NCBI GenBank assembly: GCA_964499705.1
Contig: CAZCME010000027.1
Coordinates: 1 to 53,857, forward strand
Source of the DNA: an uncultured bacterium
Lineage (GTDB): Bacteria > UBA8481
Direction: 5' to 3'
DNA length: 53,857 nt
Below, one piece after another: positions 2,722 through 18,309 of the stretch. Made by a program: the position numbers and the translations under genes. Positions within the stretch are counted from its first letter, which is position 1; each line of letters opens with the position of its first letter. A model generated the notes under the pieces. That model ran no database searches and was not told where the DNA came from. It worked only from the letters and a program-made list of their open reading frames with translations.

Positions 2722-2786
2722 CGCCTGTCATCTGGAAAAGCGAAGATGCAGAAGAATGGGAAACTATACAGCAACGACACCGACGC

Positions 2787-2979
2787 TTCGCCTAACGATT
2801 CAGTTTGTCGAACGTTTTGCACGGCGCGTCGCGTGCGGCATGCCAATAACCTACCCTGGATCATGACCATTACATTATCACAACCGATCCCGCGCAAGAA
2901 GCATTAGCACGCGGCGTGACGTGCAAAAGGTTGCGCGGAGGAGCGAAGCGACGTAGCCGACAAACTGACGTTAGACGAA
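2787..2979. repeat. Cassette-boundary element E2
   Basis: TTCGCCTAACG(AT)TCAGTTTGTCG ... CGACAAACTGACGTTAGACGAA. Confidence 0.9.
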
Positions 2980-3034
2980 AACCAGCGTAGGTAATCATTA
3001 TACCTATCGCGCGCATACCTATGGTAAATGGGTG

Positions 3035-4522
3035 CTAATAGACAGGTATACCCTGTCCCGATCTTTTGCCGTCGAAAGTGGGTATAAGCCGTAAGTTATC
3101 TACCGGTTTAGAAATGTCTCGTGGCGGCGCAAACTGTTTCTCAATGAGGTTGCGTAATATTTCGGCCCAATCAGAGGGACTTCCGTCTAGGATGCTAACG
3201 TGGAGAGGATTGTCGGGGTCATAATCTACAGCATCGAGTGGGTTCATCTCATAAAGCTGAGCCAAAGCGCTGCGCGCTTCGGATTCTCTTTCCAACTTTG
3301 TATAACATTCTCCGATGCGATACAGCTGCATGCGAACATCATATAATGACGTATCGCCCACACTGAATGCTCGTTCGTAGGCGCGTACGGCTTCAGAATA
3401 ATTGGCGGGGGGCGGACGATACACGCGTAAGTCGCCTAAGCGCGCCCAGAGCCTCCAATTATCAGGATCATTTCGAATAGTGCGAGAGACTAAATCAACG
3501 GCGCGGTCGAGTTCACCATTATGAGCTAATGAATAGCTAAAATCTAAGACGACCCCAGACATTGCAGATGGGGCGTGAGGTTCATCTTGTAGTAATTTTA
3601 TCGTGATTTCAAAATGTTCGATAGAATCATCTAAGGTGCATAATATAGGACCAATCCAGCCGCCGTCACCCTCATTCCATTCACGCGATTGATTAGCCAA
3701 GTGAAGCTGATAACAAACTCGAGCCAGCGAATAGTGCGCTTGGGCACTGTTCGGAAATGCGCGCACATACCTTTCTGCCGAATGAAGAGCATCGGGAGCA
3801 TCCCTTCGTGATGCGGCTTCTCTATGCGCGGTTAAGAACGGCAGTTCGTCCACGTTTAGCGAAAAGCTTGATCTGAGTGGACGTAGCTGTCGGCATTCAA
3901 TGTTCCTTATATACTTTGACGGAATAGCAAAGTTGATAGATTGACCGGCGAGAATAGAGGACGTAACAATGCCTATTACTCGTCCATTACGGTTTATGAT
4001 CGGCGAGCCACTCGATCCAGGTGAAATCGGCGCTGTGATTTGCAATTGACTGCGACTATTATGGGTACGAACACCAGAAACTATCCCGGTAGAAACTGTG
4101 CCTTGAAGGCCAAGTGGACTGCCAATTACAACGATTTCTTCTCCTATGGTCGGGTCAATCGTCTCGAGTCTAAGATAAGGAAGTCTGTCGCCGTCGATTT
4201 TTAATATCGCGAGGTCGCTATTCTTATCATAACCATAAATGCCAGAGACCTGGTAACGAACACCGTTGCTTGCGATTGCCCATATCGTCGTTCCTCCAGC
4301 CAGTGCATGAAAATTTGTTATCAGCTTACCGTCCTGAGAAATCAAGAAACCAGTGGCTGAACTAACTTCGTTGCCGCTTTCGCCAAAAACCTCTAGTAGG
4401 TACACGGCGTTCTTGGCAGAACCAGCAAGGCGTGCTGCATTGAGTGAATGGCCATTGGTGCTTGTGAAGGCGACTAGGAAAAGGAATCCGAGCAGCCTGA
4501 ATCTGGTCGTGCGTATTAACAT
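3035..4522 (-). CDS. Secreted trypsin-like (S1C) serine protease with TPR-like C-terminus
   Basis: Signal peptide; triad motifs TNFHAL, DLAILK, PGSSGSP; helical TPR-like repeats. Confidence 0.85.
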   Translation of the reverse strand: MLIRTTRFRLLGFLFLVAFTSTNGHSLNAARLAGSAKNAVYLLEVFGESGNEVSSATGFLISQDGKLITNFHALAGGTTIWAIASNGVRYQVSGIYGYDKNSDLAILKIDGDRLPYLRLETIDPTIGEEIVVIGSPLGLQGTVSTGIVSGVRTHNSRSQLQITAPISPGSSGSPIINRNGRVIGIVTSSILAGQSINFAIPSKYIRNIECRQLRPLRSSFSLNVDELPFLTAHREAASRRDAPDALHSAERYVRAFPNSAQAHYSLARVCYQLHLANQSREWNEGDGGWIGPILCTLDDSIEHFEITIKLLQDEPHAPSAMSGVVLDFSYSLAHNGELDRAVDLVSRTIRNDPDNWRLWARLGDLRVYRPPPANYSEAVRAYERAFSVGDTSLYDVRMQLYRIGECYTKLERESEARSALAQLYEMNPLDAVDYDPDNPLHVSILDGSPSDWAEILRNLIEKQFAPPRDISKPVDNLRLIPTFDGKRSGQGIPVY

Positions 4523-4735
4523 AAGTAATTCATAGTATAGAACTTAGTGCCTGATGTCGCCATTGTACATGCGATATGGAATTATGGGTAAGAGGAATCT
4601 TTGCACGCGAAGATGAATGGAAAATTGGATGGGCGCGCAATCTGCGGATAGGAAATAGCACGGTGTAAACGAGAGGGCTGCCATCGATATTCCTACGACG
4701 AGTCATTTTACCAATTCTGGAAGGAGGCGGAGGGG

Positions 4736-5545
4736 TCATTCCGCATGATCCTGATAATCGCCTATTGCTTGAATTAGTTCGCGTACTTCTGTGGGGCGAT
4801 AAATCCGGGGATTCCATGACAAGTGACATTGGGTGCCAATGGATGCCCAGTGGCCGTCGAGAACGATGTAGTCGCAATAGGCGAGAGGAACAACCGAATG
4901 GAAATAGTCCATAGCATGGTTTCTTGTAATCGGGAAATCCTGTTTACAGATTAGCTCTAATATCTTTCCGTTGGTAATATATGCGCGACGGTTGTTGGCG
5001 ACAGCAGAGACGTCGAATGCCTTTCCTTGAAGGCGCGGATTCGCTTTCCACTGAGCACGAGCTTTTGTGAGGAATCGGACAATGTCATCCGAAACAGCTA
5101 TTCTGCGCGGGGTTATCGAATCCTGATATTCCTTCTCGGCAACGGCATCGAAGATTGGGGCGATGGACATAGTGGTCGCGTCGATGAAATGACGGAACTC
5201 CTTCAGGAAACTGATGTCAAACCACACCTCATTTTCCCCCGGGCATAATTCGCGATCTGACACTGCCCCCGGCGTGGATTCAATAGGAATCCAATGTTGC
5301 CCCACACCAGCTATCACATTCTTGATCTTCATCAGGGAATCTGGACTGCTTGCCGAAAACTCCACCAAGTTCATTATGGAAACAGCGAGCGTACCATTCT
5401 TTGCGACGGCTGAAACCAGGTCTGCGAGAAGAGAGATGTCCTTTTCAAGGAGTATGAGCCCACAGTTATCAAGATAGACAAGAGGGCGACGACAAGGAAA
5501 AGAATAGGTCAGAATGCCCTCACTTTTCAAGGAGAGTTCAGGCAT
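4736..5545 (-). CDS. Hypothetical protein, possibly PIN-like nuclease fold
   Basis: ATG 5545 with GGAGG upstream; VYLDN near the N-terminus and DYFH...YCDYIVLD near the C-terminus resemble PIN-like acidic motifs. Confidence 0.55.
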   Translation of the reverse strand: MPELSLKSEGILTYSFPCRRPLVYLDNCGLILLEKDISLLADLVSAVAKNGTLAVSIMNLVEFSASSPDSLMKIKNVIAGVGQHWIPIESTPGAVSDRELCPGENEVWFDISFLKEFRHFIDATTMSIAPIFDAVAEKEYQDSITPRRIAVSDDIVRFLTKARAQWKANPRLQGKAFDVSAVANNRRAYITNGKILELICKQDFPITRNHAMDYFHSVVPLAYCDYIVLDGHWASIGTQCHLSWNPRIYRPTEVRELIQAIGDYQDHAE

Positions 5546-5752
5546 GAGGCCTCCGGCGCTGGCCTTCGCCTGGGACTCGCGATGAGCAACACCTCTCGTT
5601 GAGCTGGGCGGGGCGCTTGCAGAACGGTGTGCGTCGAGGTGAATCATCAAGCGATATTCGGAACGATGCCGTCATCAACATAGAGTGCTGCAAGCGCCAT
5701 GCACGGCGGGCGATGCCAGACAAAGGGGAGTAATCATGCTCTCCCGCGGGTC

Positions 5753-5948
5753 TTCGTCTAACGATGACGATGGCCGAACCTGGAGCCCGGCGCGGCGAAT
5801 GCGACACGATGACAACCCCTCGCGAATCATCGCCACGATCTTATCATGAGCTATCGCCAACTAGAAACCCCTGCATTCGCCGTGACGGGCGGAAGGTTGC
5901 GCGGAGCGGCCAACAGGCCGCGTAGCCGGCCATCGTTCGTTAGACGAA
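5753..5948. repeat. Cassette-boundary element E3
   Basis: TTCGTCTAACGA(TG)ACGATGGCCG ... CGGCCATCGTTCGTTAGACGAA-CT-CCACC. Confidence 0.9.
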
Positions 5949-6023
5949 CTCCACCGTAGGCTTCGTTCCGAGCCCTTGGGCGCATGCATTCAGCAAATCC
6001 GCCTATCGACATAGTCAGTCGAT

Positions 6024-6052
6024 TTGCAAGCAATCGTAAAATCAGAGACAAT
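6024..6052 (+). promoter_or_regulatory. Candidate sigma70 promoter of the PIN toxin module
   Basis: TTGCAA-17 bp-GACAAT ending 6 nt before ATG 6059. Confidence 0.4.
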
Positions 6053-6058
6053 ACGCTT

Positions 6059-6544
6059 ATGAGCACCGTGTATCTGGAAACAACGATTCCGAGCTACCTG
6101 TCCAAAGCAGCGAGCACTGATCAAGTGTTCGAAGTGCATCGGTCGCTGACGTGGCAGTGGTGGAAAGAGTCGCGGCGCGAGTACGACTGTTTCGTTTCAG
6201 AGGCTGTTATCAAGGAACTCTCCCTTGGAACGCCTGACGCGGCTTCGCGCAGACTTGCATTCGTGTCTGAAATTCCGATATTGGCGGTAATGCCGGAAAT
6301 TGAGACGATGGCGCGTGAGTATCTTGGTGCCCTGCGTCTCCCGGACAAGGCGATTATTGACGCGGTCCACCTGTCTTACGTTATCAGGTATCGAGTAGAC
6401 TATCTCTTGACGTGGAACTGTAAGCATCTCGCGAACGGTGTGGTGAGACGCCGACTGCAGGAGTATAATGTCCCTAGAGGCGTTCATCTGCCGGTCATCG
6501 TGACGCCAGAAGAGTTACTGACGTCGAATATGGAGGAATTGTGA
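6059..6544 (+). CDS. PIN-domain (VapC-like) toxin
   Basis: MSTVYLETTIPSYL...SEAVIKEL...DAVHLS...YLLTWNCKHLAN...IVTPEEL. Confidence 0.85.
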   Translation: MSTVYLETTIPSYLSKAASTDQVFEVHRSLTWQWWKESRREYDCFVSEAVIKELSLGTPDAASRRLAFVSEIPILAVMPEIETMAREYLGALRLPDKAIIDAVHLSYVIRYRVDYLLTWNCKHLANGVVRRRLQEYNVPRGVHLPVIVTPEELLTSNMEEL

Positions 6545-6723
6545 TGAGCGAAGATTCCGTGGTGAAGGAAGTCCGAGAGGCGCGTGATGCGTTCGCGAAA
6601 GAGTGCAAGTATGACCCGCACATTATTCTGGCGCGCCTTCGAGAAGATGAGACCAAGCATGGCGAGCGCCTTGTGACGCCCGACGCATTCCAGAAGAAGT
6701 ATCCGACGCGCAATATCGCGTAG
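6541..6723 (+). CDS. Small protein coupled to the PIN gene, putative antitoxin
   Basis: Overlaps the PIN stop codon; EDSVVKEVREARDAFAKECKYD resembles small partners of this PIN group. Confidence 0.6.
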   Translation: MMSEDSVVKEVREARDAFAKECKYDPHIILARLREDETKHGERLVTPDAFQKKYPTRNIA

Positions 6724-6748
6724 ATTCGTACAGTTCTTCATGAACATA

Positions 6749-7240
6749 TTAGCGCCTGCACTCCATTAGCACGGCCTCGCCCCATCGTGTGATAATTGGA
6801 CCGGCAACGAGGATAAAGCCTGCCTTCTCGTATGCTCTCCGCGCACGCATGTTATTAGGATTGGGATCAGTGCCAACAGTTGGAGCGCCCTGCGCAAACA
6901 ATCGTTGCACGTGCGCGCGAACAAACGCGGTGCCATGTCCCTTGCCCAACATGTCGGCCTCCCCAATATACTGATCAATCCCGCGCGCCCCTGACGGCAA
7001 GTACGAGAACGGGTGAGGATCCCAACCATGCACGTCATAGTCTTGAGCAAAGGCGAACGGTCGGTCGTTATGTTCCACGATCCACATGGAAATTCGAGAA
7101 TCCGCTAGTTTCTCTGTTTCCTTCTCGATTTCGGGCGCCCCCCACCACTCGACTACATGTTCTGCGGCTCGCCAGCCAGCCAAGAGCGGCAAATCCGATA
7201 CAATGACAGGACGAAAGCAGTATGCATCAGTCGTGTTCAT
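6749..7240 (-). CDS. GNAT acetyltransferase, AAC(6')-like subfamily
   Basis: HVVEWWG, RGIDQYIGEADMLGKGHG, TDPNPNNMRARRAYEKAGF. Confidence 0.85.
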   Translation of the reverse strand: MNTTDAYCFRPVIVSDLPLLAGWRAAEHVVEWWGAPEIEKETEKLADSRISMWIVEHNDRPFAFAQDYDVHGWDPHPFSYLPSGARGIDQYIGEADMLGKGHGTAFVRAHVQRLFAQGAPTVGTDPNPNNMRARRAYEKAGFILVAGPIITRWGEAVLMECRR

Positions 7241-7275
7241 GGCGTTGACCGGCCATACGATGAGCCTAGCGGGAC

Positions 7276-7359
7276 TTCGTCTAACGTTTCAATAGCCGCG
7301 CATGCACTTCGGCTATTGTGCCGTATCAGGGCATTAGGCGAAGTGCAACTTCGCCTATT
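7276..7359. repeat. Short variant element E4 resembling the array-head site
   Basis: TTCGTCTAAC, hairpin CAATAGCCG/CGGCTATTG, then palindrome ATTAGGCGAA-GTGCAAC-TTCGCCTATT. Confidence 0.7.
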
Positions 7360-7500
7360 TTTTGCAATAGATGAGACAAGAAAAAAATAATTATTCACGT
7401 TGCTTTCCCCCAGCTGAAAGTCATAAATTAAAATTTACCACAGTTCCCATAGATGATTCAAGGGCGGGATCGATCTATGCTGGAGTGCGGCCACGAAAAC

Positions 7501-7815
7501 TCAGACAGCTCGGCGACGACGAAGACGAGTCACTACCTCATCAGCCGTAGCTTTCGCGATTCGAGAGACAAGTGCACTTCTTGAAGGGGTGTCCGCAGCA
7601 AGGCCGCGTTCAATCAGATCTCTAGCGACCGAAGTATAACCGGATGCCCCGCGCTTCAATGCCTCTGCGGATAGACGTTTCTTAACTTCCGGGGGAACGC
7701 GAAGCGTAAGCAGTACCAAGCTTTGTCGGCGCTTCGGCATTCGATATTTTGGCGTCTCATCAAATTCGGCCATCACTTCATTTAGTGACATGTTCTCAAT
7801 TCGTTTTGCCATCAC
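7501..7815 (-). CDS. Putative BrnA/CopG-type antitoxin (RHH DNA-binding)
   Basis: LTLRVPPEVKKRLSAEALKRGASGYTSVARDLI; directly downstream of BrnT-like gene. Confidence 0.75.
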   Translation of the reverse strand: MMAKRIENMSLNEVMAEFDETPKYRMPKRRQSLVLLTLRVPPEVKKRLSAEALKRGASGYTSVARDLIERGLAADTPSRSALVSRIAKATADEVVTRLRRRRAV

Positions 7816-7824
7816 TTCCTCCTT

Positions 7825-8109
7825 TTAACGACCAAACGCGGTAACTGGTCGGATATGCCCGTCGTCAATCTTGTCAATGACGATCACAAGATTTCTACCG
7901 CCCATGGTCTGCCCAGTGACCAAGTATCGGCGTTGATACTTCGCCTCTTTCCTGCGTTTCTTATGCGGCCGAACTTCGTATGCAGAAAGCTCGAATATTT
8001 CATCAACCTCGGTCTGTGCAACGGCGTGCTGCGCGATGTGCTCCAAGTTAACGTCATCCCAATCGAGGATGGGAGTTTCCGACCACGGTGGACGAGGCAT
8101 AGGCGACAT
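7825..8109 (-). CDS. BrnT-family toxin
   Basis: LDWDDVNLEHIAQHAV...EVDEIF...YLVTGQTMGGRNLVIV...IRPVTA. Confidence 0.8.
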   Translation of the reverse strand: MSPMPRPPWSETPILDWDDVNLEHIAQHAVAQTEVDEIFELSAYEVRPHKKRRKEAKYQRRYLVTGQTMGGRNLVIVIDKIDDGHIRPVTAFGR

Positions 8110-8123
8110 GGAACGTAGTACGA

Positions 8124-8152
8124 ATGTTATACGATCGCTCAGTCTGTGTCAA
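8124..8152 (-). promoter_or_regulatory. Candidate sigma70 promoter for brnT/brnA
   Basis: Minus strand TTGACA (8152-8147), 17 bp, TAACAT (8129-8124). Confidence 0.55.
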
Positions 8153-8223
8153 CGGCGAACAAATGAAAATGATGCGCTAGAACCTGAGAAAGGAAAGGCA
8201 AGCGGCTCCGCGGAGCGGTCGAC

Positions 8224-8422
8224 TTCGTCTAACGTTTGAGATTGGCGAACGTTTCGCACGGCGCGACGTTCGCGAGACGAAAATATGCGATGTGAATTCA
8301 TGAGCCGAAACTTATCAGAAACCCTCGAATGAATTCCACCCATGCGAACGGCGTGACGGGCGAAAGGTTGCGCGGAACGGCCCGCAAGGGCCGTGGAGCC
8401 GCCAATCTTCACGTTAGACGAA
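8224..8422. repeat. Cassette-boundary element E5
   Basis: TTCGTCTAACGTTTGAGATTGGCG ... CGCCAATCTTCACGTTAGACGAA-CG-CCACC. Confidence 0.9.
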
Positions 8423-8514
8423 CGCCACCGTTGAAACGTATCAAGCAATTCCGCTGCCATATTCATTCAAGCGCGCCAATCATATATAGAGCGAACACCA
8501 CATTAGACAATGAG

Positions 8515-9039
8515 CTAATCATCACGATCCCGCCTTTGCTCATACCAATCATGGAACTTTTCACATAGGACTTCCGAATCATTGCGGTCGTTCCAATTCT
8601 CCCCATAGCGTTTGCTCAAATACGTATCTTGGGCTGAATTATATCGACCGAGCTCAAAGGCCTCCAGAAACTTATAGTGATTATCTGTAACCCTCTTCTT
8701 GTCGGCTGATTGATGGCACTTCCTGCAAAGAACCTCGACGTCTTCTGGACGTTCGTCATGAAAATGCTCATAAGTCTTGTGATGAACTTCAAGACGTACC
8801 CCGACAGCACCACATTTCTCGCAGCGGCTATTTCGGATAGAGATAATGCCCTTACAAAAAATCCTCCATCTTGCCGACGAGATATACGCCTTGTATGCGT
8901 TCAGGAACTCAGGTGTGCCGTACGTTTTCGCCAATCGATCCTGCTCGATCTGTGTATCGTGTTCACGCCGTGCGCGTCCATTATCCCCCTCGAACAGAGA
9001 GCCTTGATATTTCAATGCCATGAGATTCCGTGTGGCCAA
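8515..9039 (-). CDS. HNH endonuclease
   Basis: YISSARW...CEKCG...LEVHHKTY...VEVLCRKCH; alternative start at 9021. Confidence 0.85.
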   Translation of the reverse strand: MATRNLMALKYQGSLFEGDNGRARREHDTQIEQDRLAKTYGTPEFLNAYKAYISSARWRIFCKGIISIRNSRCEKCGAVGVRLEVHHKTYEHFHDERPEDVEVLCRKCHQSADKKRVTDNHYKFLEAFELGRYNSAQDTYLSKRYGENWNDRNDSEVLCEKFHDWYEQRRDRDD

Positions 9040-9059
9040 GCTGGCGACAAGAGGTCGTC

Positions 9060-9269
9060 TTCGGCTAACGATTGTGATTTCCGAACTTCGCGAAGTGAAA
9101 ATAAACCGTTCATTAACGATAGCCTATCATAGCCGATCGACCTGATCCGGGCGCGCCATTTGCTGCTTTTGCAAATGGCGTGAACGGATCACTCAACAAT
9201 AACCCGCGAAGTTGCGCGGAGGAGGCCCGCTTCTGGCCGACGTAGCCGGAAATCAGCGCGTTAGGCGAA
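9060..9269. repeat. Cassette-boundary element E6
   Basis: TTCGGCTAACGATTGTGATTTCCG ... CGGAAATCAGCGCGTTAGGCGAA-CG-CCACC. Confidence 0.9.
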
Positions 9270-9477
9270 CGCCACCGTATAGTGTATTCAGAGTCATCGC
9301 ACGCGGTATTTGCCAGTCGATACCCGTTATTAGTATTGATGATCCGGCGACTTATTTGCGTATCGGCGCTTCCCATAAATTCGATTAGATTGCGAACACC
9401 ACGTTTGTGCATTCTCCAGATCATGCCATCAGGCCCTATTGTTTCCGCTAGCTCGACCATTGACCATACTGACTTCA

Positions 9478-11034
9478 TCACTGATGCTGCCAACAGTAGC
9501 CGTCAGTGCCTGCACTACGGGAGCAACGATAGCCGCGCCTTGTCGTAGCTAGACAACGGCCATCGCTTTCATCTCGCGCGGGCCGTGAATAAGCAGCTGC
9601 TTCCGCTTCAGCTAATTTGGCCGCCCTCTCGACTTCCTGCTGGCGTCGCCGTTCTTCAACCTCAGCTTTCCGTTGTAGTCTCTTTGCTTCTGCATCAGCT
9701 TTCTCCTGTTGCCGCTTTGCCTCTGCGTAGACCTTCTGCTGTCGCCGCTTTTCCTCAGCCTCAACAATCTGCTGCTTTCGCTGTTCCTCAGCGATAGCTG
9801 ATCTAGCCTTTTGAATTAGTCGTCTCACCTCTGGCGATTGATCCGGTATCGAAATGTCAAAGATCACAGACATTCGTGCGACTTTTTCAGCAAGTGCGGA
9901 ATCTCCCGATGAAAGGTAGTTCTGCAATAAGACTCTGTAAACGTCCGTCAGATGCTCGCGAGAAACATTCTCCGGGGTAGCATGATCCAAATGAGTATTA
10001 TAGAGGATGACAGCAGCATCAGTATCGCCATTCAGCCACAGCGTATAAGCCTGGCTCAGTATCTGGTATGGTGTAGGCTGCTGATGGATGGCAGTAGTGG
10101 AAATAGTGTTTTGCGGGGGGCTTTGACTAGGAGCTGAATTTGATGAGTTCGCTTGCCGCGATGGCTGATAGGTCATTCCCACGATGAAGAAAGTTGCTAT
10201 GGTAATTACGGCTTTAGCTTTTCTACTATGCCATTTGTCTAACCAGAGCCAGATAAGACACACTGGCCAAACGCGGGAAGAAATAAAGAAATACAATATA
10301 AGATAATAAAATCTCCATTTTCCACGATTACGATACTTGTTCAGCTCGCTTGGGGCATCCAACCACGCTGTGAATTGATTCCATAAGCCATTCGAAATTG
10401 ATGAATTCTCTGCGGAAGGCTCTGTGACTTCGCGTTCATTTTCGATTCCGGCTGATGTTGAGTTCTGAGGGCGCTCAGAATCATCCGGATCAATGCCCAT
10501 CAATTCGAGCATATCCTTCGATAAAGTAAAAGCGCGGATCCCAGCGCGCTGGTATTTCTCTGTTTGATTGTTAATCGCAGCCTCGGCCATGTCGATGATA
10601 GCGTCGCAATAATGATCGTCTTTCTCGGCAATTTCCTGAGCAGCGCTGCCAATGGAAACGCGACGCCGAATCTTCGAAATAAGTTCTTTCCGTGCTTCGA
10701 TCGCCGATATTTGTTTTCGGATTTGTGCCTTTTGTTTACTTCCGGCGAGAATATTATTGACTGCTGCTTGGATATTCGTCGCCGCATTGCCTGGTTCCGT
10801 TACGTCCGTATTGGTCGATCGCATTGCCACTATGTATTCTTCCGCGCTGTTCAAATCTTGAATAATCGCCATTTCATTCTCGGAAACTAAACCACCGTTG
10901 GGAAGTTTCTCGATCCCTGTGACTACCCGTGCTGTCGCGATCTCGGAAATATCAGGCTGTATTGGAATCTCATTACTAACGAGGTGAAGATCCTTGAGAA
11001 ATGTCTCGATATTTAACTTATTGGCCACTATCAA
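9478..11034 (-). CDS. Hypothetical membrane protein with coiled coil and C-terminal Cys3-His motif
   Basis: 518 aa; central TM pair; E/K/R/Q-rich helix; ends CLATTRRGYRCSRSAGTDGYCWQHQ. Confidence 0.7.
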   Translation of the reverse strand: MIVANKLNIETFLKDLHLVSNEIPIQPDISEIATARVVTGIEKLPNGGLVSENEMAIIQDLNSAEEYIVAMRSTNTDVTEPGNAATNIQAAVNNILAGSKQKAQIRKQISAIEARKELISKIRRRVSIGSAAQEIAEKDDHYCDAIIDMAEAAINNQTEKYQRAGIRAFTLSKDMLELMGIDPDDSERPQNSTSAGIENEREVTEPSAENSSISNGLWNQFTAWLDAPSELNKYRNRGKWRFYYLILYFFISSRVWPVCLIWLWLDKWHSRKAKAVITIATFFIVGMTYQPSRQANSSNSAPSQSPPQNTISTTAIHQQPTPYQILSQAYTLWLNGDTDAAVILYNTHLDHATPENVSREHLTDVYRVLLQNYLSSGDSALAEKVARMSVIFDISIPDQSPEVRRLIQKARSAIAEEQRKQQIVEAEEKRRQQKVYAEAKRQQEKADAEAKRLQRKAEVEERRRQQEVERAAKLAEAEAAAYSRPARDESDGRCLATTRRGYRCSRSAGTDGYCWQHQ

Positions 11035-11651
11035 CCAAGCGTCATGTATTTATCAAGGAACTTCCGCGTAATGGCGTCCTCAAATACTTTTCGCGCCCGC
11101 TTGATGATATCGTCCGCTTCCAAATTAAAGTCTTTGGCAGATTCCCACGGCACTGGAACTGTTGCGAGCCCTACTGTTCCACCGCCACCCCATCCCATTT
11201 TCCGTGAACTGGAGCACTCCACGCCTTGAGGAAAGCAACTTATGATTTTCTCTTCTGCCTCCAAACCGCCTCGACACCAGACCCAAGGAAACAAACCACC
11301 GTTGTCGAGATAGATACCGATTTGGCGCACATATTTTCCTTCTTCATCTTTGCTTGGCGTACGAAGATCGAGTTTCAGCTGCCAGCTCTTTTGAACGGTA
11401 CTTGTTTTCGGAGATTTAAGCTTGAGCGATTCGATAGTCGCTAAGCGAGCCTGCAAATCCGAAACGCATGCTTCCAGCAAGGTGGCCGCCTCGATACAAG
11501 CCGCGTCACCAACAGCATTCACTTTCTTCTTGATAAGTTCAAGATCAGCGTGATGTTCGACTTCAGGAAGAGATTTTTCTTCCTCGTACAACTGGGTCAT
11601 CTCCGAATAATATTTTAGGTAGAACATGAGTGATTTTCCGATCGCCGCCAT
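11031..11651 (-). CDS. Hypothetical protein
   Basis: 206-aa ORF closely abutting or overlapping neighbours; GGAGG upstream. Confidence 0.7.
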   Translation of the reverse strand: MAAIGKSLMFYLKYYSEMTQLYEEEKSLPEVEHHADLELIKKKVNAVGDAACIEAATLLEACVSDLQARLATIESLKLKSPKTSTVQKSWQLKLDLRTPSKDEEGKYVRQIGIYLDNGGLFPWVWCRGGLEAEEKIISCFPQGVECSSSRKMGWGGGGTVGLATVPVPWESAKDFNLEADDIIKRARKVFEDAITRKFLDKYMTLG

Positions 11652-11653
11652 AT

Positions 11654-12580
11654 TTATTTTCCTCCTGTAAATCCTGATGAGAGATATTCGCTAATACGGT
11701 AAATGTCATCCTTCGTGGTAATATTTCCGCAATTCAGCAGGTAGAGATCTTTCAATACTCCAGTCATGTAGAGCCGTAGAAATTCGATTCCCGGCTTTTT
11801 ATCGAGTTTCGGTAGCTGCGTTCGAAATAGTGACATGAGTGTGATGAATGATATGGGAATCCATTGCGGTCCCCCACATTTGGATTTCGTTTCGGGCATC
11901 CTTCCTTGATCCGGAGTAAGAAAGACAAGGGCATGATGGTCCGAGAAAGAGATGCGTTCTTGAAGCAAGTTCTCATACCTCTCACACTGATCCTCTCCTT
12001 CGTCGGCCTCGACTTTGGCTTCCACGATCACCATCCATTCTTCAATCTTGTCGTCGGGCAGAGTCCATTTCCCGCGCATGAAGATATCGAGTCGATCACG
12101 GGTTTCCCCGCTGATTAACTCACACTCGATGCGCACGTCGTGCAGCTGTGGCTCGTGCGGCATTTCCATAAATATTTTCCCTAAAAATACACGGAGAAGT
12201 GCCTCTTTGAAACCATGGTCTTCATCGGGATTCATCAACCAACCAAGCGTGCGAGTATGGGCGGTTTCGCGAAGACCTAAATCGAGCGTGCCAAAGAGAC
12301 TGATTCGGCAGCGAAGGGGATCGTTGAGAGGTAGGTGTTCATACCAATCCGAACCGCCATCTAGCTTGTCGATCAACGTCAACTTCATGGTCTCAAACAG
12401 GCTCGCTAATTCTGAGTAATCATGATCCGTCAGTGTCTCGAGAAATTCACAGTCACGTGAAAGAGTTTTACTGACGACGTAAAGGTCGCTGACAAGCGCC
12501 TCGACATCTACACGCGTGGGATTGGGCGCGTATGCCAGATCGAGGTCGAAAATGAATTGCTTGGATATAGAGAGATTCAT
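11654..12580 (-). CDS. PD-(D/E)XK nuclease family protein
   Basis: ETAHTRTLGWLMNP...HGF, RLDIF, IVEAKV...EGEDQCERY. Confidence 0.8.
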   Translation of the reverse strand: MNLSISKQFIFDLDLAYAPNPTRVDVEALVSDLYVVSKTLSRDCEFLETLTDHDYSELASLFETMKLTLIDKLDGGSDWYEHLPLNDPLRCRISLFGTLDLGLRETAHTRTLGWLMNPDEDHGFKEALLRVFLGKIFMEMPHEPQLHDVRIECELISGETRDRLDIFMRGKWTLPDDKIEEWMVIVEAKVEADEGEDQCERYENLLQERISFSDHHALVFLTPDQGRMPETKSKCGGPQWIPISFITLMSLFRTQLPKLDKKPGIEFLRLYMTGVLKDLYLLNCGNITTKDDIYRISEYLSSGFTGGK

Positions 12581-12713
12581 GTGAGAACTATATGCTCCAA
12601 CGGTATTGTAGAAAGATTTTATTGTGGGCGAAAGCAGCGCGAGTCACACAAAAGGGGCGTGCACGGCGGGCGCCGCCAATCAAAGGAATGATATCAAGCT
12701 TCGTCTCAGAGAC

Positions 12714-12849
12714 TTCGCCTAATGTATAAGGTTCCGAAGCCGACGCGGAGCGCCACGGAAGAGAGGGGAACCGACGCTTCATCAGGTTCACCGAACGGTG
12801 GCGTGGAGCGTCGGGTTGCGCGCCAGCCGGAAAAGCGACGTCGGGCGAA
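12714..12849. repeat. Degenerate cassette-boundary element E7
   Basis: TTCGCCTAAT...TTCCGAAG...GGCGTG...GTTGCGCG...CGGAA...GTCGGGCGAA. Confidence 0.65.
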
Positions 12850-12941
12850 CTGACCGCCTTCCGTGATCGGGAGCTAATGAGAGAACGTAGCCCAAGCGTG
12901 CAACGAAACGCGCCCATCAGGCAAACCGACACGGAGGTCGG

Positions 12942-13138
12942 TTTGCCTGACGATTCGAATGGCCGAACTTGCAGACCGGCGTGACGTTTGCGGAATGACA
13001 ATGACCATCGCATATCAATTCAACTTCACAACTACACGAGCCATCATGATATAACAACCTCAGCAAACGGCATGACGGTTTGCAAGTTAGCGGGAGCGCC
13101 CGCCAGGGCGCGGACGCGGCCATTCGGCATTAGACGAA
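12942..13138. repeat. Cassette-boundary element E8
   Basis: TTTGCCTGACGATTCGAATGGCCG ... CGGCCATTCGGCATTAGACGAA-GC-CCACC. Confidence 0.8.
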
Positions 13139-13291
13139 GCCCACCCTTGATATGAATCAAGCTCAACCCACGAGAAGTTCATTCAAGCGCTCCGATCATG
13201 CATAAGTGCAGGCAACGGACTGAAATCTGCAGATACACGCAAACCCGTCATATTATTTTCACAATAGAGTAAGTGGATGCCCGTTGCCATA

Positions 13292-14146
13292 TCACTTTTG
13301 AAGGGACTCCAGCCGCCGCTTGCCATCATATGTCCATTTTATACGTACCCGCTGACCGATCTCGACGCGACCGACAGAGGCGGCAAATGTCTTCGTGTCC
13401 GCAATACCGCCGTTACGAGAAGTAAGCTTAGGAACGTAGCGTGTCGCAAATCCGGTATCGGAACGAATATCAATCCAATACTCACCGTCCCAATATTTGC
13501 CAATATCTGTGACAATACCTGATGTTCTACCAGATGTGGCGCGAGGTGTGAGAGTCTCAATCTTCACCATCCATGGCATCAATTCATTGTAATCGTATGA
13601 TTTCCATGAGAGGCGAATTATGCCTTCTGGAGGAATCTTTCCCATAAATTGCATTAGCGCCCTTCTGGCTGCCCTATGTTCGGGCAATTCTTCTCCCACG
13701 TAATAGGGATTGTCAGGAACAGGTGATAACCGATCTGCTACGAATTCAACCATGAGATGCGTACCTTCTTCAGAAATATTGCGGCGAACAGAGGAAGCGA
13801 TACAAATGATGCATTCAGAGTCGATTGTATAGTCTTTGAGACCGGCGTGATCGCGATCGCCCGTTTGACGGATGGCAACTCCCCGGGAAGTAGACTCAGT
13901 TTCAGCTTTCAATGTAATCGAACCAGGAAATAAGCCCGTCCCCACGTTTAGTTCTGTGAGTATTCCAACTATGCAGGCGTCCCATGACTCATTTGGCGTG
14001 GCGTCTTTCGGCGCGTCGTATCGTTTGGATTTATCAATGTCAGCAAGCTCTGATGCTGAAGCCCTTGTAGCAACCATGCCAATGAACAATATCGATACTG
14101 TGTATACCAACACATATCTGGACCGACGACGGTGATTGTCTACCAT
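13292..14146 (-). CDS. Hypothetical secreted protein
   Basis: 284 aa, N-terminal signal-like segment, GGAGG upstream. Confidence 0.65.
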   Translation of the reverse strand: MVDNHRRRSRYVLVYTVSILFIGMVATRASASELADIDKSKRYDAPKDATPNESWDACIVGILTELNVGTGLFPGSITLKAETESTSRGVAIRQTGDRDHAGLKDYTIDSECIICIASSVRRNISEEGTHLMVEFVADRLSPVPDNPYYVGEELPEHRAARRALMQFMGKIPPEGIIRLSWKSYDYNELMPWMVKIETLTPRATSGRTSGIVTDIGKYWDGEYWIDIRSDTGFATRYVPKLTSRNGGIADTKTFAASVGRVEIGQRVRIKWTYDGKRRLESLQK

Positions 14147-14175
14147 ATTTTCCTCCTAATTATAACGATTTGAGA

Positions 14176-14325
14176 TCATTGATGCTGCCAACAATAACCG
14201 TCAGCGCCAGCACTTCGCGAACAACGATCGCCTCGCCTAGTAATAGCAAGACAACGACCATCACTTTCATTGCGGGCGGGCCGTCCATAATTATAATTAT
14301 GGCTATTCCTCGCCATAATCCACAT
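14176..14325 (-). CDS. Small Cys3-His peptide ORF, not in the ORF track; could be the frameshifted tail of the 369-aa gene
   Basis: Translates MWIMARNSHNYNYGRPARNESDGRCLAITRRGDRCSRSAGADGYCWQHQ*, homologous to the C-terminus of 9478-11034. Confidence 0.6.
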   Translation of the reverse strand: MWIMARNSHNYNYGRPARNESDGRCLAITRRGDRCSRSAGADGYCWQHQ

Positions 14326-15412
14326 ATAGAATCTTTATTACTGGTAATCGCCTAACAAAGCGCCCTTCGCCGGTGATGATAGTTTTCATACCAGCGATTT
14401 TCGCAATTATTGTACCGTAGAAATCTGATAGATCGCTGTTAGCATATCTTGAGTTGGCCGCTGATAATATGAAGCCACTTCCGAAAAGATACATATTCTT
14501 ATTATCGGTAAATGGCTCAGATATTTGCCCCTGTAACTGGATAGTTTTACCGTTGAAACCTGAAAGATCTGCAAGAATATCTTCCGGATCAACTTCAGAC
14601 GGCATGAAATAGAATGTTGCAACATCGAGTGAATCAATCCGAGATGGATTTATTTTGCGCCTAATTTTAGCGGCTATTGATTTTCGAGATGCGCCCTCCT
14701 CCATACCGGAGGCAAATGCTATCGCTTTGACAAAGTCACCTTCTGCAAGGGCGCGTTGCGCTTCTACAAGATCCTCTTTTGACTCTTCATGAAGCCCTTT
14801 GCGAAAGGCTACTTTTGCTCGTTCGAGATAGACCAGAGCTTTCTCGGCTTCAATTGAGCCTGAGTAGCGCGAGTTCAACTCGGCGCATAATTCTTCCAAA
14901 TCCGACACCGAACCGAGATCTTCATACCAACTCGCAAGACGAAGAAGCGCTTTAAGATGACGACGGCGCAAGCCCGTCGCTGACGTATCTGAAACATGAA
15001 TGCTTACAGGTTTTCCAAATGCCGTTCTCTCGCTCGATGCGATGTATGACCCATTCAAGCAACAAAGGTCATCGCCGGTCAGAATCATGCTAAGATTCTC
15101 AGTATCTCGCATTACTATAGTCGCGAACGTCATGGCGCGAGTTAGACCACGCTCAGCAATCCGTTTATCAATATATTCGCGAAGCTGATACTGGCTGGAT
15201 AAATTTAGCTCGTCGGAATCAATTCGGATTATCACGTCGCCCGCTTCCAAGTCCGCCACGGGGTTCAATATTCCATTTGGTTTCGGGATACTAGTTACTA
15301 AGAAATCAGCAGTCACACATGTCGGAATTGATAAAATCATGAGAGTCAGGCAAATTCCTACCAATAATGTCCTTATCACAATATCACGCCTCCTTAAAAT
15401 CGTCAGTGTCAA
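14303..15412 (-). CDS. Hypothetical secreted protein with PDZ-like segment
   Basis: Signal-like N-terminus, LEAGDVIIRID, helical region; true start may lie slightly downstream. Confidence 0.6.
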   Translation of the reverse strand: MTLTILRRRDIVIRTLLVGICLTLMILSIPTCVTADFLVTSIPKPNGILNPVADLEAGDVIIRIDSDELNLSSQYQLREYIDKRIAERGLTRAMTFATIVMRDTENLSMILTGDDLCCLNGSYIASSERTAFGKPVSIHVSDTSATGLRRRHLKALLRLASWYEDLGSVSDLEELCAELNSRYSGSIEAEKALVYLERAKVAFRKGLHEESKEDLVEAQRALAEGDFVKAIAFASGMEEGASRKSIAAKIRRKINPSRIDSLDVATFYFMPSEVDPEDILADLSGFNGKTIQLQGQISEPFTDNKNMYLFGSGFILSAANSRYANSDLSDFYGTIIAKIAGMKTIITGEGRFVRRLPVIKILYVDYGEE

Positions 15413-16064
15413 ATCGGAATCCGCAATAACGGCATTTTACGGCCTCGTATTTGATCATTTCTGCACACTCAGGACATTTTTTGTTAGGTTCGCCACTCTC
15501 CACCGGCATTGGCATCGACAGAACGGATACCTTTGCCTCTCGCGTTTTATGCCACTGCTTATCTATCAATGAAAAGGCAAGGTTGACGCCTGCTGCCGCG
15601 GGGAGATACTCTTTAAAAAATGATGAGTTATTTCCTGATGCCCGCACAAATACATTTCCACCCTGTTCAACGCCGGTAAGATCACTGAAGAGGTTTTGCT
15701 CCACGACCATATGCCCCGTGGCAAGCATGCTGGTGGCGATTACTCGCCGCTCAGTAATGACAGAGATACCGTAAACGAGCGGACTACGGAATGATCTTGG
15801 CACTTCGCGCCAAAAGACGCCAATCGGTGGCTCCTTTCTCAAGTCGAGCCCCGGGATTCGCTGTGCGAGAATTACAGGAATATATGGTGGCAATCCTCGC
15901 GCGGTCGGTTCGAAATGCCAGACAACGGAGCTGAAGCAACCGCATCTGAATATTTTTCTGGTTGACATATTATTAGATATATTCCGGTTTCGCGCTCGAA
16001 TCAACATGTAATATCCACCCAATACTGGTGAAATCATAATAAGTATCAGAATAATAGCTACCAT
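15384..16064 (-). CDS. Membrane-anchored protein with C-terminal zinc ribbon
   Basis: N-terminal TM; KKCPECAEMIKYEAVKCRYCG. Confidence 0.75.
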   Translation of the reverse strand: MVAIILILIMISPVLGGYYMLIRARNRNISNNMSTRKIFRCGCFSSVVWHFEPTARGLPPYIPVILAQRIPGLDLRKEPPIGVFWREVPRSFRSPLVYGISVITERRVIATSMLATGHMVVEQNLFSDLTGVEQGGNVFVRASGNNSSFFKEYLPAAAGVNLAFSLIDKQWHKTREAKVSVLSMPMPVESGEPNKKCPECAEMIKYEAVKCRYCGFRFDTDDFKEA

Positions 16065-16167
16065 CTATCTAAACCCTCCGTAAACGAGATACACCTCGCC
16101 GAGTAGACTTGAACCGAGTGGCCGATATCACCACAGAGGGGATGTTATCAAGCGTCGGCACTGACAC

Positions 16168-16306
16168 TTCGCCTAACGATTGTGATTTCCGAACTTGCGG
16201 ATTGGCGCGACGGTTGCCGCTTTTGCAACCGGCGTGACGATTCGCAAGTTGCGCGGAAGCGGCCCGCTTCTGGCCGCTGTAGCCGGAAATCAGCGCGTTA
16301 GGCGAA
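16168..16306. repeat. Cassette-boundary element E9 (short)
   Basis: Arms nearly identical to E6: TTCGCCTAACGATTGTGATTTCCGAACTT ... CGGAAATCAGCGCGTTAGGCGAA-CT-CCACC. Confidence 0.9.
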
Positions 16307-16346
16307 CTCCACCGTTGAGAGATATATAACTTCGGGCACCCGCCCA

Positions 16347-16589
16347 TCACAACAAATATCTCCCGATTTTGAGAGATCCGTGAAATACACCAATAACATC
16401 TACATCCCGATCTTGCTTGATTAAATATGCAATTCGATAATGGCCGTACAGAAGAATCCGAATGTGGCGATCAGTGATATCCCAATACCGATATCCAGAT
16501 TCGGAGAAGTCTCGCAATATTTGAGAGTGGTCGTATATCGATTGGATAAGGTGGAGAGCCACGTCTGGGGTCGCGGCCTCGGCCATCAT
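16347..16589 (-). pseudogene. ParE/RelE-family toxin, N-terminally truncated
   Basis: LRDFSESG...RILLYGHYRIAYLI...VDVIGVFHGS; expected N-terminal strand/helix is missing and no antitoxin is adjacent. Confidence 0.65.
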
Positions 16590-16593
16590 CCTC

Positions 16594-16674
16594 CTCTTAC
16601 GTTGCCGATAAGCGGCCCGAAACGGCGGCGCAACGCGCCGCTGTTGGGGGTCCGTGTTCATCGACGGGTTAGAC
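16594..16674 (-). other. Canonical-type attC site
   Basis: Minus strand GTCTAAC-CCGTCGATGAACACGG...CCGCTTATCGGCAAC-GTAAGAG; R'' overlaps the TAA stop of the upstream gene; 81 bp; R' deviates from GTTRRRY. Confidence 0.75.
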
Positions 16675-17259
16675 CTGTGCTTGCGTAAGACGAATATCGA
16701 CTTCTCGGTCGACGTATTTCCATTCCTCTGACGCACGCAGTTCGGAAAGCAGCCTGTTGAACTCAACCTCATGAATTGGCGCGTATTCGAACCAATTCAG
16801 AAAATCGAACGGTTCATTCTCTGAGAGGTCCCGGCAGTGGTGGAGCTTGCGCGCTACTGCAGGCAAGTACTGAAGCCCGATTTGGACGTGCTTCGACTGT
16901 TCGAAAACGCTCCGGCGTTCGTCTTGCGTGAGATCCCACCAAGCTGCGTTCTTCCGGATCGGTATTAGCGCAGCGCACGTTGCTTCTGGGCGCGCCAGAC
17001 CTTGCTGCTTCGCTACAATTTCATTCTTCTCTGCGCGCATGACATATCGTTCATTGCTGGTTATTCCACGAAGTATCCAGGGTGCATTGGTTTCAGACTG
17101 CACCTCTGAAGCGGATACGACGTTGAGCCTTTTGGCTTCAGGCAGGGGCTCGCCAACTCTGGTTTCGGCTCTGACAATCCGCCAAGGGCCAATGTCTGCG
17201 CCGACGAATGCAAATAATCGTGTATTCGCCATCAAGTTCTGTTCAACGTATCCAGCCAT
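16669..17259 (-). CDS. Chlorite dismutase-family (Cld/DyP-like) heme protein
   Basis: LIPIRKNAAWWDLTQDERR...H...LPAVARKLHHCRDL...FDFLNWFEY...EEWKYVDRE; GAGGAG RBS. Confidence 0.85.
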   Translation of the reverse strand: MAGYVEQNLMANTRLFAFVGADIGPWRIVRAETRVGEPLPEAKRLNVVSASEVQSETNAPWILRGITSNERYVMRAEKNEIVAKQQGLARPEATCAALIPIRKNAAWWDLTQDERRSVFEQSKHVQIGLQYLPAVARKLHHCRDLSENEPFDFLNWFEYAPIHEVEFNRLLSELRASEEWKYVDREVDIRLTQAQV

Positions 17260-17372
17260 AACACTCTCCTCGAAGAATATTGTCTATCCTAATTACAAGC
17301 TACACAACAATGCGTCCAATAAATGCATCTCACCCGCAGGTAGGTCGATATTCAGTCGCCTCCGCGGAGCGG

Positions 17373-17574
17373 TTCGACTAACGTTGTGGCTGTCCGAACC
17401 GGGCGGCGGCACCCAGATCGAGAATCAAAAGCTGACAAGCACCAGGGCAAATGGACAGGGGCGGGCGCGTCGCTTGCGTCTTTTTGCAAGCGGCGTGAAC
17501 GACCCATCATCGCCACGCCCGGTTGCGCGAAACGACCGCAGGGAGTGGAGCCGGACAGCCGCACGTTAGACGAA
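17373..17574. repeat. Cassette-boundary element E10
   Basis: TTCGACTAACGTTGTGGCTGTCCG ... CGGACAGCCGCACGTTAGACGAA-CCC-CCACC. Confidence 0.9.
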
Positions 17575-18074
17575 CCCCCACCAATAAATGCCGTCAAGAT
17601 ATTACGGTTCCTTTCATGAGCGAAGAGCATCAAGAAATACGTTTAGCATTACTTTTTCTCAATGGCAAGAACAACAATTGTAGAAACAATGTAAAATAAT
17701 TCCCCAGCGCTATCAACATTTAATGCAGCCACGGTCATCGCGGTTTGATAGACAACGCGAAGCCACCTTCTTTTCCTGTTCGGCCGCGCGCAACGACGAG
17801 GAAGCGGTGCCGATAGTTAAACAAACGGACCTACGCCACTTACGGCTTCCATCGCGGTCAATGCGATTCATGAAGCATGTCCGATGTTATGGCCACTCGC
17901 GGTAAAGAAGCCATCATCAACAGTTGATGAGAGAGTATAAAACTCATTCGCATGGAATCCACGGTTGCGCATGCCGCGATCATTGGCATTTGATAGATGT
18001 CTTGGAGCAGCTTCCTCGCTGTATTGGAAGAGCTTTCGCATCTGGACTACGCGCCATGATGCATCACTGTGCGC

Positions 18075-18190
18075 TTCGTCTAACGACTGGTCTTCCGACC
18101 GTTGGAGCGGCCATACTTGGTAAGAATCCGCATGGACGGTTGGATACACCCGAGATTTTACAGGTTTGGGCGAACATATGTTCGCCCAAA
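18075..18190. other. Candidate array-head (attI-equivalent) site
   Basis: Last TTCGTCTAAC core before the recombinase, without the usual right arm; followed by a perfect 26-bp palindrome TTTGGGCGAACATATGTTCGCCCAAA (18165-18190). Confidence 0.6.
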
Positions 18191-18309
18191 GGGGGTTATT
18201 GGGGGTGGGGCGGGCGTTGGAGGAGTATGCCGGATTGCTCTCATTTGGCGTGGCGAGAGGGGCGGAGATTCTTGGTTCAATATAGTCAATGTATTTCATT
18301 TTTGCTTGG

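Follow-up and report, generated by a model that had tools for sequence, protein, structure and literature searches.

A strand-biased family of branched attC-like sites in an integron-like cassette array beside a tyrosine recombinase without the IntI-specific domain

Background

The attC sites of canonical integrons are usually 57-141 nt in length. In sites such as the aadA7 attC and the Vibrio VCRs (PMC5027507, PMC2727003), an R box of the form RYYYAAC ... GTTRRRY and an unpaired spacer are part of an imperfect hairpin with covarying, sequence-free stems, one site stands behind each cassette in a single orientation, the bottom strand has an excess of G:T pairs and purines and folds a few kcal/mol better, and an extrahelical feature lies opposite the AAC triplet. 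According to Nivina 2016 (PMC5027507), the bottom strand of 263 canonical attC sites was 2.12 kcal/mol (7.6%) lower in energy, with G:T mispairs numbering 1.24 on the bottom strand against 0.39 on the top strand, and an advantage of 1.28 kcal/mol that was left after G:T removal was ascribed to the purine skew of the bottom strand; the extrahelical bases are stated there to face the AAC triplet on the bottom strand and to share its arm on the top strand. Here we describe a stretch of 53,857 bp (the window), the first 53.9 kb of contig C27 (CAZCME010000027.1) in the 4.67-Mb, 96%-complete genome of an uncultured bacterium (assembly GCA_964499705.1), in which attC-like repeats sharing most of these properties with canonical sites form a gene-cassette array beside a tyrosine recombinase gene.

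The criterion that defines an integron integrase is the IntI-specific domain, the region of the I2 helix (Messier and Roy 2001, and the intI_Cterm profile, both as cited in PMC4889954). In Treponema-type integrons (PMC3607928) intI has the same orientation as the cassettes, lies upstream of them and is transcribed towards attI, which is also the arrangement in the window, and the enzymes are described as integron integrases. In IntegronFinder an integrase is recognized by PF00589 together with intI_Cterm (Cury et al. 2016, PMC4889954), so that by this definition the array described here would be IntI-less; unlike the clusters of attC sites lacking integron-integrases (CALINs) of that study, it is directly joined by a recombinase whose catalytic set is intact and by an attI-like half-site. 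A literature search, with subscription journals outside its scope, turned up neither a report of attC arrays with I2-less integrases nor one of attC sites that are branched.

Results and Discussion

The cassette array

The array occupies positions 1-18084 of the window and contains ten attC-like repeats (E1 to E10) in addition to the 3' end of one more element, which is cut off by the start of the contig. Its G+C content is approximately 0.45-0.55, compared to approximately 0.60 in the remainder of the window. All ten elements are on one strand and in the same orientation between unrelated cargo genes, with one site downstream of each cassette open reading frame (ORF), as is characteristic of attC sites beside attI and an integrase gene; some cassettes carry two or three genes. 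No copies of the repeat were found elsewhere in the assembly. On the + strand the repeats start with CTTCGYCTAACG and end with CGTTAGRCGAA. Their 5' arms read GTCTAAC (four copies), GCCTAAC (two copies), GGCTAAC, GACTAAC, GCCTGAC and GCCTAAT, and their 3' arms GTTAGAC (six copies), GTTAGGC (two copies), ATTAGAC and ATTAGGC, giving the inverse-core and core arrangement of attC with arm pairing over 11-13 bp. Between the array and the recombinase gene, whose 3' end (18310) is 225 nt further on, there is a single half-site without a partner arm. The GTCTAAC at 18078 is the only solitary half-site, and reads GTTAGAC on the minus strand. As with IntI, the recombinase gene thus adjoins both an attI-like site and the array.

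We conclude, with a probability of roughly 0.8, that the elements are attC-type sites of a sedentary chromosomal integron-like cassette array and that the + strand of the window is the bottom strand. An earlier note on this DNA, made from the letters alone, had proposed that the + strand is the strand that folds and corresponds to the bottom strand of integrons, and four independent lines agree with that assignment. The energies and mismatches of the elements are asymmetric in the manner of canonical bottom strands; the cassette genes are on the minus strand; the solitary half-site is at the integrase end, as attI would be if the minus strand is the top strand; and a hairpin of 25-33 nt in each long element lies opposite the + strand AAC, which supports the same assignment because this is the side of the extrahelical bases in canonical bottom strands. 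Coordinates and energies of the individual elements are given in Table 1.

Structure of the sites

Ten elements from four sources could be aligned well, and RNAalifold returned 50 consensus pairs, 27 of which show compensatory changes, with 94.1% of cells paired. Covariation of this extent was reached by none of 500 shuffles, and slid controls gave at most 11 such pairs. As in attC, an imperfect palindrome folds as a hairpin in which structure rather than sequence is conserved. The long elements (17 aligned) follow a common plan of 143-214 nt which, unlike the canonical hairpin, is a three-way junction. Read from the outside inwards on the + strand, it consists of the R box, a 4-nt 5' spacer and a 9-bp stem 1, followed directly by AAC and 6-10 more pairs (stem 2), the box G / CGCG / R, a 7-bp stem 3 and the apical part; the return arm consists of N / CGTG / A, stem 2', GTT, the 25-33 nt hairpin, stem 1', a spacer of 2-3 nt and the R box. 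The 4 nt on the 5' side and the 2-3 nt on the 3' side form an internal loop that is unpaired in 17 of 17 elements, corresponding to the central spacer of attC.

Several parts of this plan differ from canonical sites. The box of the central arm (5' G-CGCG-R, 3' N-CGTG-A) has a fixed G.T wobble between two purine.purine mismatches, and a second AAC/GTT pair with the same polarity as the R box stands at the base of this arm. Stems 1-3 contain no single-base bulges in any of the 17 elements, and in place of single extrahelical bases there is the 25-33 nt hairpin on the 3' arm, which has the conserved flanks GCGCGGA ... GTAGC and covaries in 5 of its 7 pairs. This hairpin is the only large extrahelical feature, and the arm that carries it is the one facing the + strand's AAC triplet. 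Its branch point is approximately 20 nt from the outer R'' end, inside the canonical extrahelical range of 16-24 if that range is numbered from the same end. The apical part takes three forms: 7 nt in E9, a loop of 70-74 nt, or a module of 110-114 nt in which a compact hairpin repeats the GCGC / GTGA box.

The 70-74 nt apical loops, also unlike canonical attC, are constant in length and partly conserved in sequence. The loops at 2837-2906, 5803-5872, 8274-8343 and 12992-13062, together with those of related elements, have sequence in common across genomes, and on the minus (cargo) strand they carry a TGATAA-like motif with an invariant ATG approximately 13 nt further. A scan for promoters, with a simple sigma-70 model, and for terminators gave counts equal to those of shuffles and no site in the loops.

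The central hairpins of E1 and E6 (1002-1050 and 9143-9191) are identical. These two elements share their inner part, from AAC to GTT, and differ in the outer stem and extra hairpin, while for E6 and E9 the reverse is true. This mosaicism suggests exchange at the inner AAC/GTT or at the conserved flanks, and it is unexplained by canonical R-box recombination. In three genomes of the family these arrays also contain shorter repeats of a second type (CTAATG..., then CCGAAGCC.GCCGGTAGCGACAGGAAGGGCGGC-like); this type was located at 12712-12851 of the window in degenerate form, at 5315-5410 of locus L016, and in reverse at approximately 4414 of locus L004.

Strand bias of the elements

Folding energies were computed for both strands of the elements, a comparison that the earlier note had proposed. 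With DNA parameters the + strand was more stable in 9/9 window elements, by 2.0-8.8 kcal/mol, and in 7/9 elements from relatives, giving 16/18 overall with a mean difference of -5.26 kcal/mol (approximately 10%; Wilcoxon p = 3e-4). When G-T pairing was forbidden the + strand was still lower in 8/9 window elements, and wobbles are therefore not the whole story. The Mathews-1999 DNA parameters gave numbers identical to the 2004 set and so do not constitute an independent check.

Mismatches were counted on the fixed, covariation-supported structure in order to avoid dependence on the energy model. From the covariance-model alignment (A4), 21 of 32 rows were used, comprising 8 long window elements and 13 elements of relatives; of the 11 rows left out, 8 were re-matches on the opposite strand, one was a truncated copy, and the other two were the short E4 and the degenerate E7. 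In addition to 796 Watson-Crick pairs, these 21 elements contained 37 G.T against 11 A.C (p = 2e-4) and 39 purine.purine against 13 pyrimidine.pyrimidine mismatches (p = 4e-4), or 1.76 G.T against 0.52 A.C per element. The 8 long window elements alone had 10 G.T against 1 A.C, and 13 purine.purine against 0 pyrimidine.pyrimidine. Since cells from related copies are not independent, the p-values are generous. A structure defined on the minus strand has one extra R-box pair, rich in C.A and located beyond the crossover; on the seed alignment of 10 sequences the union gave 23 G.T against 11 A.C. A naive self-alignment of whole elements, which gave 17 G.T against 13 A.C with loops forced to pair, was replaced by the covariation-supported structure.

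The G-T bias that the earlier note had read from the + strand is thus real, and the stem pairs it quoted are present: CGCGTCGCGTGC (2825-2836) and GCACGCGGCGTG (2907-2918) in E2, CGCGCC and GGCGTG in the central hairpins of E1 and E6, TGTGG and CCGCA in E10, and TTCGAATGG and CCATTCGG in E8. Its description of these wobbles as many was overstated, as several of its examples represent one homologous position. The bias matches that published for the bottom strands of canonical attC in kind and in size, with the same enrichment in G:T and purines and the same better folding. As PMC5027507 already gives this property for attC sites, the bias is not the new clue that it was taken for but the rediscovery of a known hallmark, and as a hallmark it marks the + strand as the bottom strand.

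A strand-specific mutational process, such as deamination during replication or transcription, could give rise to an asymmetry of this type without any selection, and the flank of the array does show a GC skew of +0.119 on the + strand (20001-53857), where C-to-T changes would turn C-G pairs into T.G. The array itself, outside the elements, has no such skew (GC -0.015, AT +0.013, purine fraction 0.499, as compared to a purine fraction of 0.530 inside the elements), so that the bias is not accounted for by composition. An excess of purine.purine mismatches cannot arise through transitions, and transcription of the cargo exposes the minus strand, which predicts a bias in the opposite direction. 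In integrons the distal R box, on the far side of the crossover, derives from the adjacent cassette and is swapped in each recombination. This part of the elements was unbiased (10 G.T against 7 A.C), whereas inward of the crossover there were 27 G.T against 8 A.C (p = 0.002) and 30 purine.purine against 8 pyrimidine.pyrimidine (p = 5e-4). Such a distribution fits selection on the co-inherited hairpin and argues against a regional mutation bias, and we regard a purely mutational origin as highly improbable. If the skew of the flank reflects replication, the attC bottom strands would be on the lagging-strand template, although gene orientation may confound this; that is the rarer orientation in sedentary integrons, found in 5/30 (Loot 2017, PMC5371416).

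One-strand G.U pairing and purine.purine mismatches are also typical of RNA motifs, and in principle the elements could be structured RNAs that are produced by + strand transcription in antisense to the cargo. The consensus energy with RNA parameters is indeed lower on the + strand (-64.55 against -48.27). Element by element, RNA parameters gave no strand difference, the + strand being lower in 10/18 (p = 0.2) as opposed to 16/18 with DNA parameters. No Rfam family matched within 1-20000, promoter-like sites were not in excess (23 found, 22.2 expected), and the ends of the elements are integron core sites in a cassette-site-cassette layout beside a recombinase. An RNA origin of the bias is for these reasons scarcely credible. 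The same energies bear on the suggestion of the earlier note that the bias argues against a role in the cargo mRNA, and that suggestion is not supported: with RNA parameters the strands are equally stable and the mRNA would keep a strong structure, so that the bias says little about such a role.

It is also conceivable that the asymmetry is the footprint of sequence-specific recognition, with the recombinase or a partner protein reading the GCGC/GTGA box and the flanks of the extra hairpin (GTTGCGCGGA ... GTAGCC) and the stability of the + strand arising as a by-product; this would be compatible with bottom-strand recombination, though the bias would take on another meaning. Nine of the 27 inward G.T cells are in one conserved column, in which the 3' T is invariant and is partnered on the 5' side by G (9) or A (2). 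Both flanking mismatches are of the purine.purine kind in almost every copy. Without this column the inward count falls to 18 G.T against 8 A.C (p = 0.076). The inward purine.purine excess is spread, with the 30 and 8 cells distributed over 17 and 11 columns respectively, the + strand keeps its advantage in 8/9 elements with G-T pairing forbidden, and the same diffuse bias is given for 263 unrelated canonical attC in PMC5027507. We consider it unlikely, but worth keeping in mind, that recognition accounts for the asymmetry.

The adjacent recombinase

The product of the recombinase gene consists of an extra N-terminal domain (residues 1-89), a SAM-like domain (95-173, PF13495), a catalytic domain (195-357, PF00589) and a tail predicted to be disordered (approximately 385-451). 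The catalytic residues R222, K247, H317, R320, H343 and Y352 are invariant or nearly so in an alignment of 86 sequences, so that the full set of a tyrosine recombinase is present. Among NCBIfam models the best match was the integron integrase model TIGR02249 with 213.1 bits (cut-off 265), followed by XerA (NF040815) with 211.1 bits (cut-off 220); the protein is therefore below both curated cut-offs. The closest solved structure to its AlphaFold model, which has a predicted local distance difference test (pLDDT) score of 84.6, is VchIntIA (2a3v; Foldseek E 4e-16, 30% identity), followed by XerA.

The likeness to IntI, which extends to the closest structure, the best model, both Pfam domains and the catalytic set, is interrupted at the position of the IntI-specific insertion. 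TIGR02249 matched at positions 2-180 and 224-314 only, leaving 181-223 unmatched, and the alignment to VchIntIA is in two pieces that skip chain residues 182-237, where the query has 17 residues. The AlphaFold2 model likewise predicts no extra helix in the I2 region. As the IntI-specific domain is absent, the protein is not an integron integrase by the defining criterion. It differs from IntI in addition by its sub-cut-off score, its 89-residue N-terminal domain and its tail. The alignment to Xer proteins (5hxy, 4a8e) is contiguous, without the IntI insertion, and the scores for the two families are nearly equal (211 against 213 bits). Unlike XerA, the protein falls short of the cut-off of 220 and its gene is at a cassette array and not at a dif site, in a genome that has two further Xer-like genes, on contigs C21 and C5. 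No better match to TIGR02249, and no IntI above the cut-off, was found elsewhere in the 96%-complete genome.

The N-terminal 89 residues are predicted to form a strand-strand-helix-strand-strand-helix-strand-helix fold (pLDDT 85.8), and this domain is conserved in a large family, with 6668 proteins at E <= 1e-20 out of 8000 that were scored. In VIA-align comparisons the best matches of the model were T4 UvsW (1rif_B, Z 6.3, rmsd 2.4, 63 aligned; 2oca, Z 5.7), XPB (2fz4, Z 4.4) and HARP (4o66, from SMARCAL1, Z 3.2), all with scores in the range rated as common by the tool; Foldseek gave XPB a probability of 0.87 with E 0.17, and Pfam HARP was matched with E 0.95 in one homologue. The modelled likeness to the UvsW N-terminal, XPB damage-recognition and HARP domains, which all bind structured DNA, is suggestive and can be taken as a lead only.

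At the other end of the protein, the last approximately 65 residues are of low complexity and predicted to be disordered (pLDDT <50). Their coding sequence falls within 18310-18560 and coincides with a sharp anomaly in GC and AT skew at 18001-19000. A simple repeat of the CTCACT type is located just upstream of the gene, at 19712-19774.

Related arrays in other genomes

Within the bacterial family the repeat type was found in 4/4 genomes, with copy numbers of 8, 2, 3 and 4, and it was absent from the one genome of the same order that was searched. A pattern scan of genome contigs gave 66 loci, compared to approximately 110 expected by chance under equal base frequencies, and nhmmer found related elements among these on two contigs only (L003/L004 and L016). 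Among 11 loci from a scan of metagenome contigs, only L075 and L079 were related. One genome, G003 (locus L068), has a recombinase 49% identical to that of the window, with one in-frame TGA, followed by the same half-site. In another, G002 (88% complete), elements are present and a close integrase homologue was not found.

Sixty other genomes were also sampled, and five of them contained homologues of the recombinase at E <= 1e-40, all near contig ends. In G043 the gene product (29% identity) has the N-terminal domain and matches the IntI model in two pieces, and the gene is followed on the same strand by at least 4 cassettes with sites of approximately 125 nt, which again fold as such a three-way junction and carry the extra hairpin on the corresponding bottom-strand arm. 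In 3/3 cassettes the first 23-25 nt show 96% complementarity with the far end of the cassette's own site, so that for the G043 design the crossover would fall in the R box. Tandem repeats of 132 nt, three adjacent and a fourth 435 nt further, are found in one cassette region of the same array (L110, contig C33, 13005-13835). The homologue in G032 has 280 residues, which is too short for the insertion, and lacks the N-terminal domain; after its gene come GTTGTGTGCT, one ORF and a site whose start is the exact complement, AGCACACAAC. No repeat family was detected in the 5.4 kb downstream of the integrase homologue of G034, and the contigs stop 112 nt (G053) and 302 nt (G011) past the gene. Of the three sampled homologue loci with over 1 kb of sequence downstream, two have a cassette array in the orientation of the gene behind it.

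These relatives bear on the possibility that the array is a relic that has lost its own integrase, with an unrelated Xer-like or phage-type enzyme as its neighbour and a bias inherited from an era of canonical IntI. The lack of the IntI insertion, the lack of an IntI above the cut-off in a nearly complete genome, the in-frame TGA of the G003 homologue and the elements of G002, where no close integrase homologue was found, would all fit such a history. Four observations are difficult to reconcile with it: the half-site follows the recombinase gene directly in two genomes whose proteins are 49% identical; the two other Xer-like genes are available to serve chromosome resolution; in G043 and G032, which are unrelated genomes, cassette arrays come after recombinases of the same I2-less kind; and the sites lack the extrahelical bases that canonical IntI reads. 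A relic of this kind is accordingly judged improbable.

A model for recombination

The structure of the elements, its covariation, the strand bias and the genomic layout are observed features of this DNA, and for an attC-type array read from its bottom strand they would be put to use as follows. The + strand would be extruded, or exposed as single-stranded DNA, and fold into the three-way junction. Mismatches that are G.T or purine.purine on this strand would be A.C or pyrimidine.pyrimidine on the other, and since those of the + strand are preferentially of the former kind, the recombinogenic fold would be approximately 5 kcal/mol (approximately 10%) more stable on the bottom strand. The recombinase may then bind the R box and adjoining stem, while the extra hairpin and the box with its fixed G.T and purine.purine mismatches could mark the correct strand and perhaps block a second cleavage, a role played in canonical integrons by extrahelical bases together with the I2 helix (Escudero 2016, PMC4792948). 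The folded strand would be cut by the adjacent tyrosine recombinase between AA and C in the R box and exchanged with the attI-like site.

A number of points weigh against this interpretation. No direct sign of recombination was found, the contig joints between repeats being short-sided only (20-34 letters). The variable R-box base fits the partner in its own cassette in 5/10 cases and the partner in the array in 4/9, which does not discriminate between the two, and the crossover point is therefore not located in the window array. The recombinase is without the insertion on which canonical integrases depend to recombine attC, and it falls short of the TIGR02249 and XerA cut-offs, the sites are without single extrahelical bases and longer than typical attC, and the three sites of G043 show no energy asymmetry. 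Lastly, a good part of the G.T excess comes from one column, so that the excess may reflect protein recognition of a motif rather than selection for stability.

In contigs from four DNA runs, repeat joints and loose ends diverging at the element borders were also seen. They may represent other cassettes or the collapse of repeats and were not used as evidence.

Cargo and other features of the window

The cargo genes identified by Pfam encode a CPBP protease, a YitT membrane protein, a glyoxalase, a trypsin-TPR protein, a GNAT acetyltransferase, a BrnT-like toxin, an HNH protein, an operon with a PD-(D/E)XK nuclease, a ParE-like protein and a chlorite-dismutase-like protein. The single ORF pair on the + strand (5984-6723), opposite to the other cargo, consists of two overlapping ORFs of 186 and 60 aa without a Pfam hit, in the same cassette interval as the GNAT gene. 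Three co-directional genes on the minus strand (9478-12580; 518, 206 and 308 aa), the last encoding the PD-(D/E)XK nuclease, are found in one interval between sites; the interval is sizeable for one cassette and possibly represents a defence module. Outside the array, one ORF of at least 6238 codons on the minus strand (35140-53856) continues past the window end and represents a giant protein gene.

Table 1. Coordinates of the repeats, attI-like region, cargo and recombinase gene, with covariance-model scores and minimum free energies of folding (DNA parameters) of the + and - strands.
Feature	Position	Strand	Model score (bits)	Energy, + / - strand (kcal/mol)	Remarks
3' end of attC-like element	1..57	+	8.9		Cut by contig start; R'' GTTAGAC 46-52; weak match, model positions 149-202
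Cassette cargo	53..18084	- (mostly)			Unrelated genes; G+C ~0.45-0.55
E1	917..1123	+	68.2	-55.2 / -51.5	Type b; compact central hairpin in 112-nt central module
E2	2785..2981	+	180.7	-48.2 / -45.7	Type a; 70-nt loop
E3	5751..5950	+	186.4	-60.4 / -57.3	Type a
E4	7274..7344	+	22.6	-18.1 / -16.1	Short, 71 nt; GTCTAAC ... ATTAGGC; weak match, scored on minus strand
E5	8222..8424	+	183.7	-59.5 / -51.1	Type a
E6	9058..9271	+	82	-50.7 / -47.0	Type b; inner module like E1, outer like E9
E7	12712..12851	+	22.4		Degenerate, second repeat type; no clear R''; similar starts in L004, L016
E8	12940..13140	+	170	-43.7 / -36.2	Type a; degenerate R box GCCTGAC / ATTAGAC
E9	16166..16308	+	137.3	-51.2 / -43.7	Minimal, 143 nt; 7-nt apical loop; core architecture
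E10	17371..17576	+	70.7	-58.5 / -49.7	Type b; nearest integrase
attI-like region	18075..18309	.			Solitary R' half-site CTTCGTCTAACG (18075-18086; GTCTAAC 18078-18084), no partner arm
Tyrosine recombinase	18310..19665	-			451 aa; transcribed towards array

Conclusion

The wobble bias alone adds little, being a published hallmark of attC bottom strands. What is new is the object on which it is found, an integron variant with branched sites that lack extrahelical bases and an integrase that lacks the defining domain: the same strand signature is present on differently shaped sites, beside an integrase without the domain that is held to be essential for single-strand recombination. It is possible, and we suggest it tentatively, that the array belongs to a distinct and widespread kind of integron, in which I2-less, Xer-like integrases act on folded single-stranded DNA, the asymmetry is provided by the extra hairpin and the fixed G.T and purine.purine mismatches, and, in the present case, the N-terminal domain of UvsW/XPB/HARP type reads branched or mismatched DNA. 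If this is true, the Xer-like integrases of that kind of integron never had I2 or have lost it, and bottom-strand recombination with its G.T and purine bias exists without I2, which would bear on the 'chicken-and-egg' origin of I2 and attC (Escudero 2016, PMC4792948). Single-strand cassette recombination may extend beyond canonical IntI, many arrays scored as integrase-less may have an unrecognized integrase, and living intermediates or alternatives could serve for studying how the IntI-specific domain arose.

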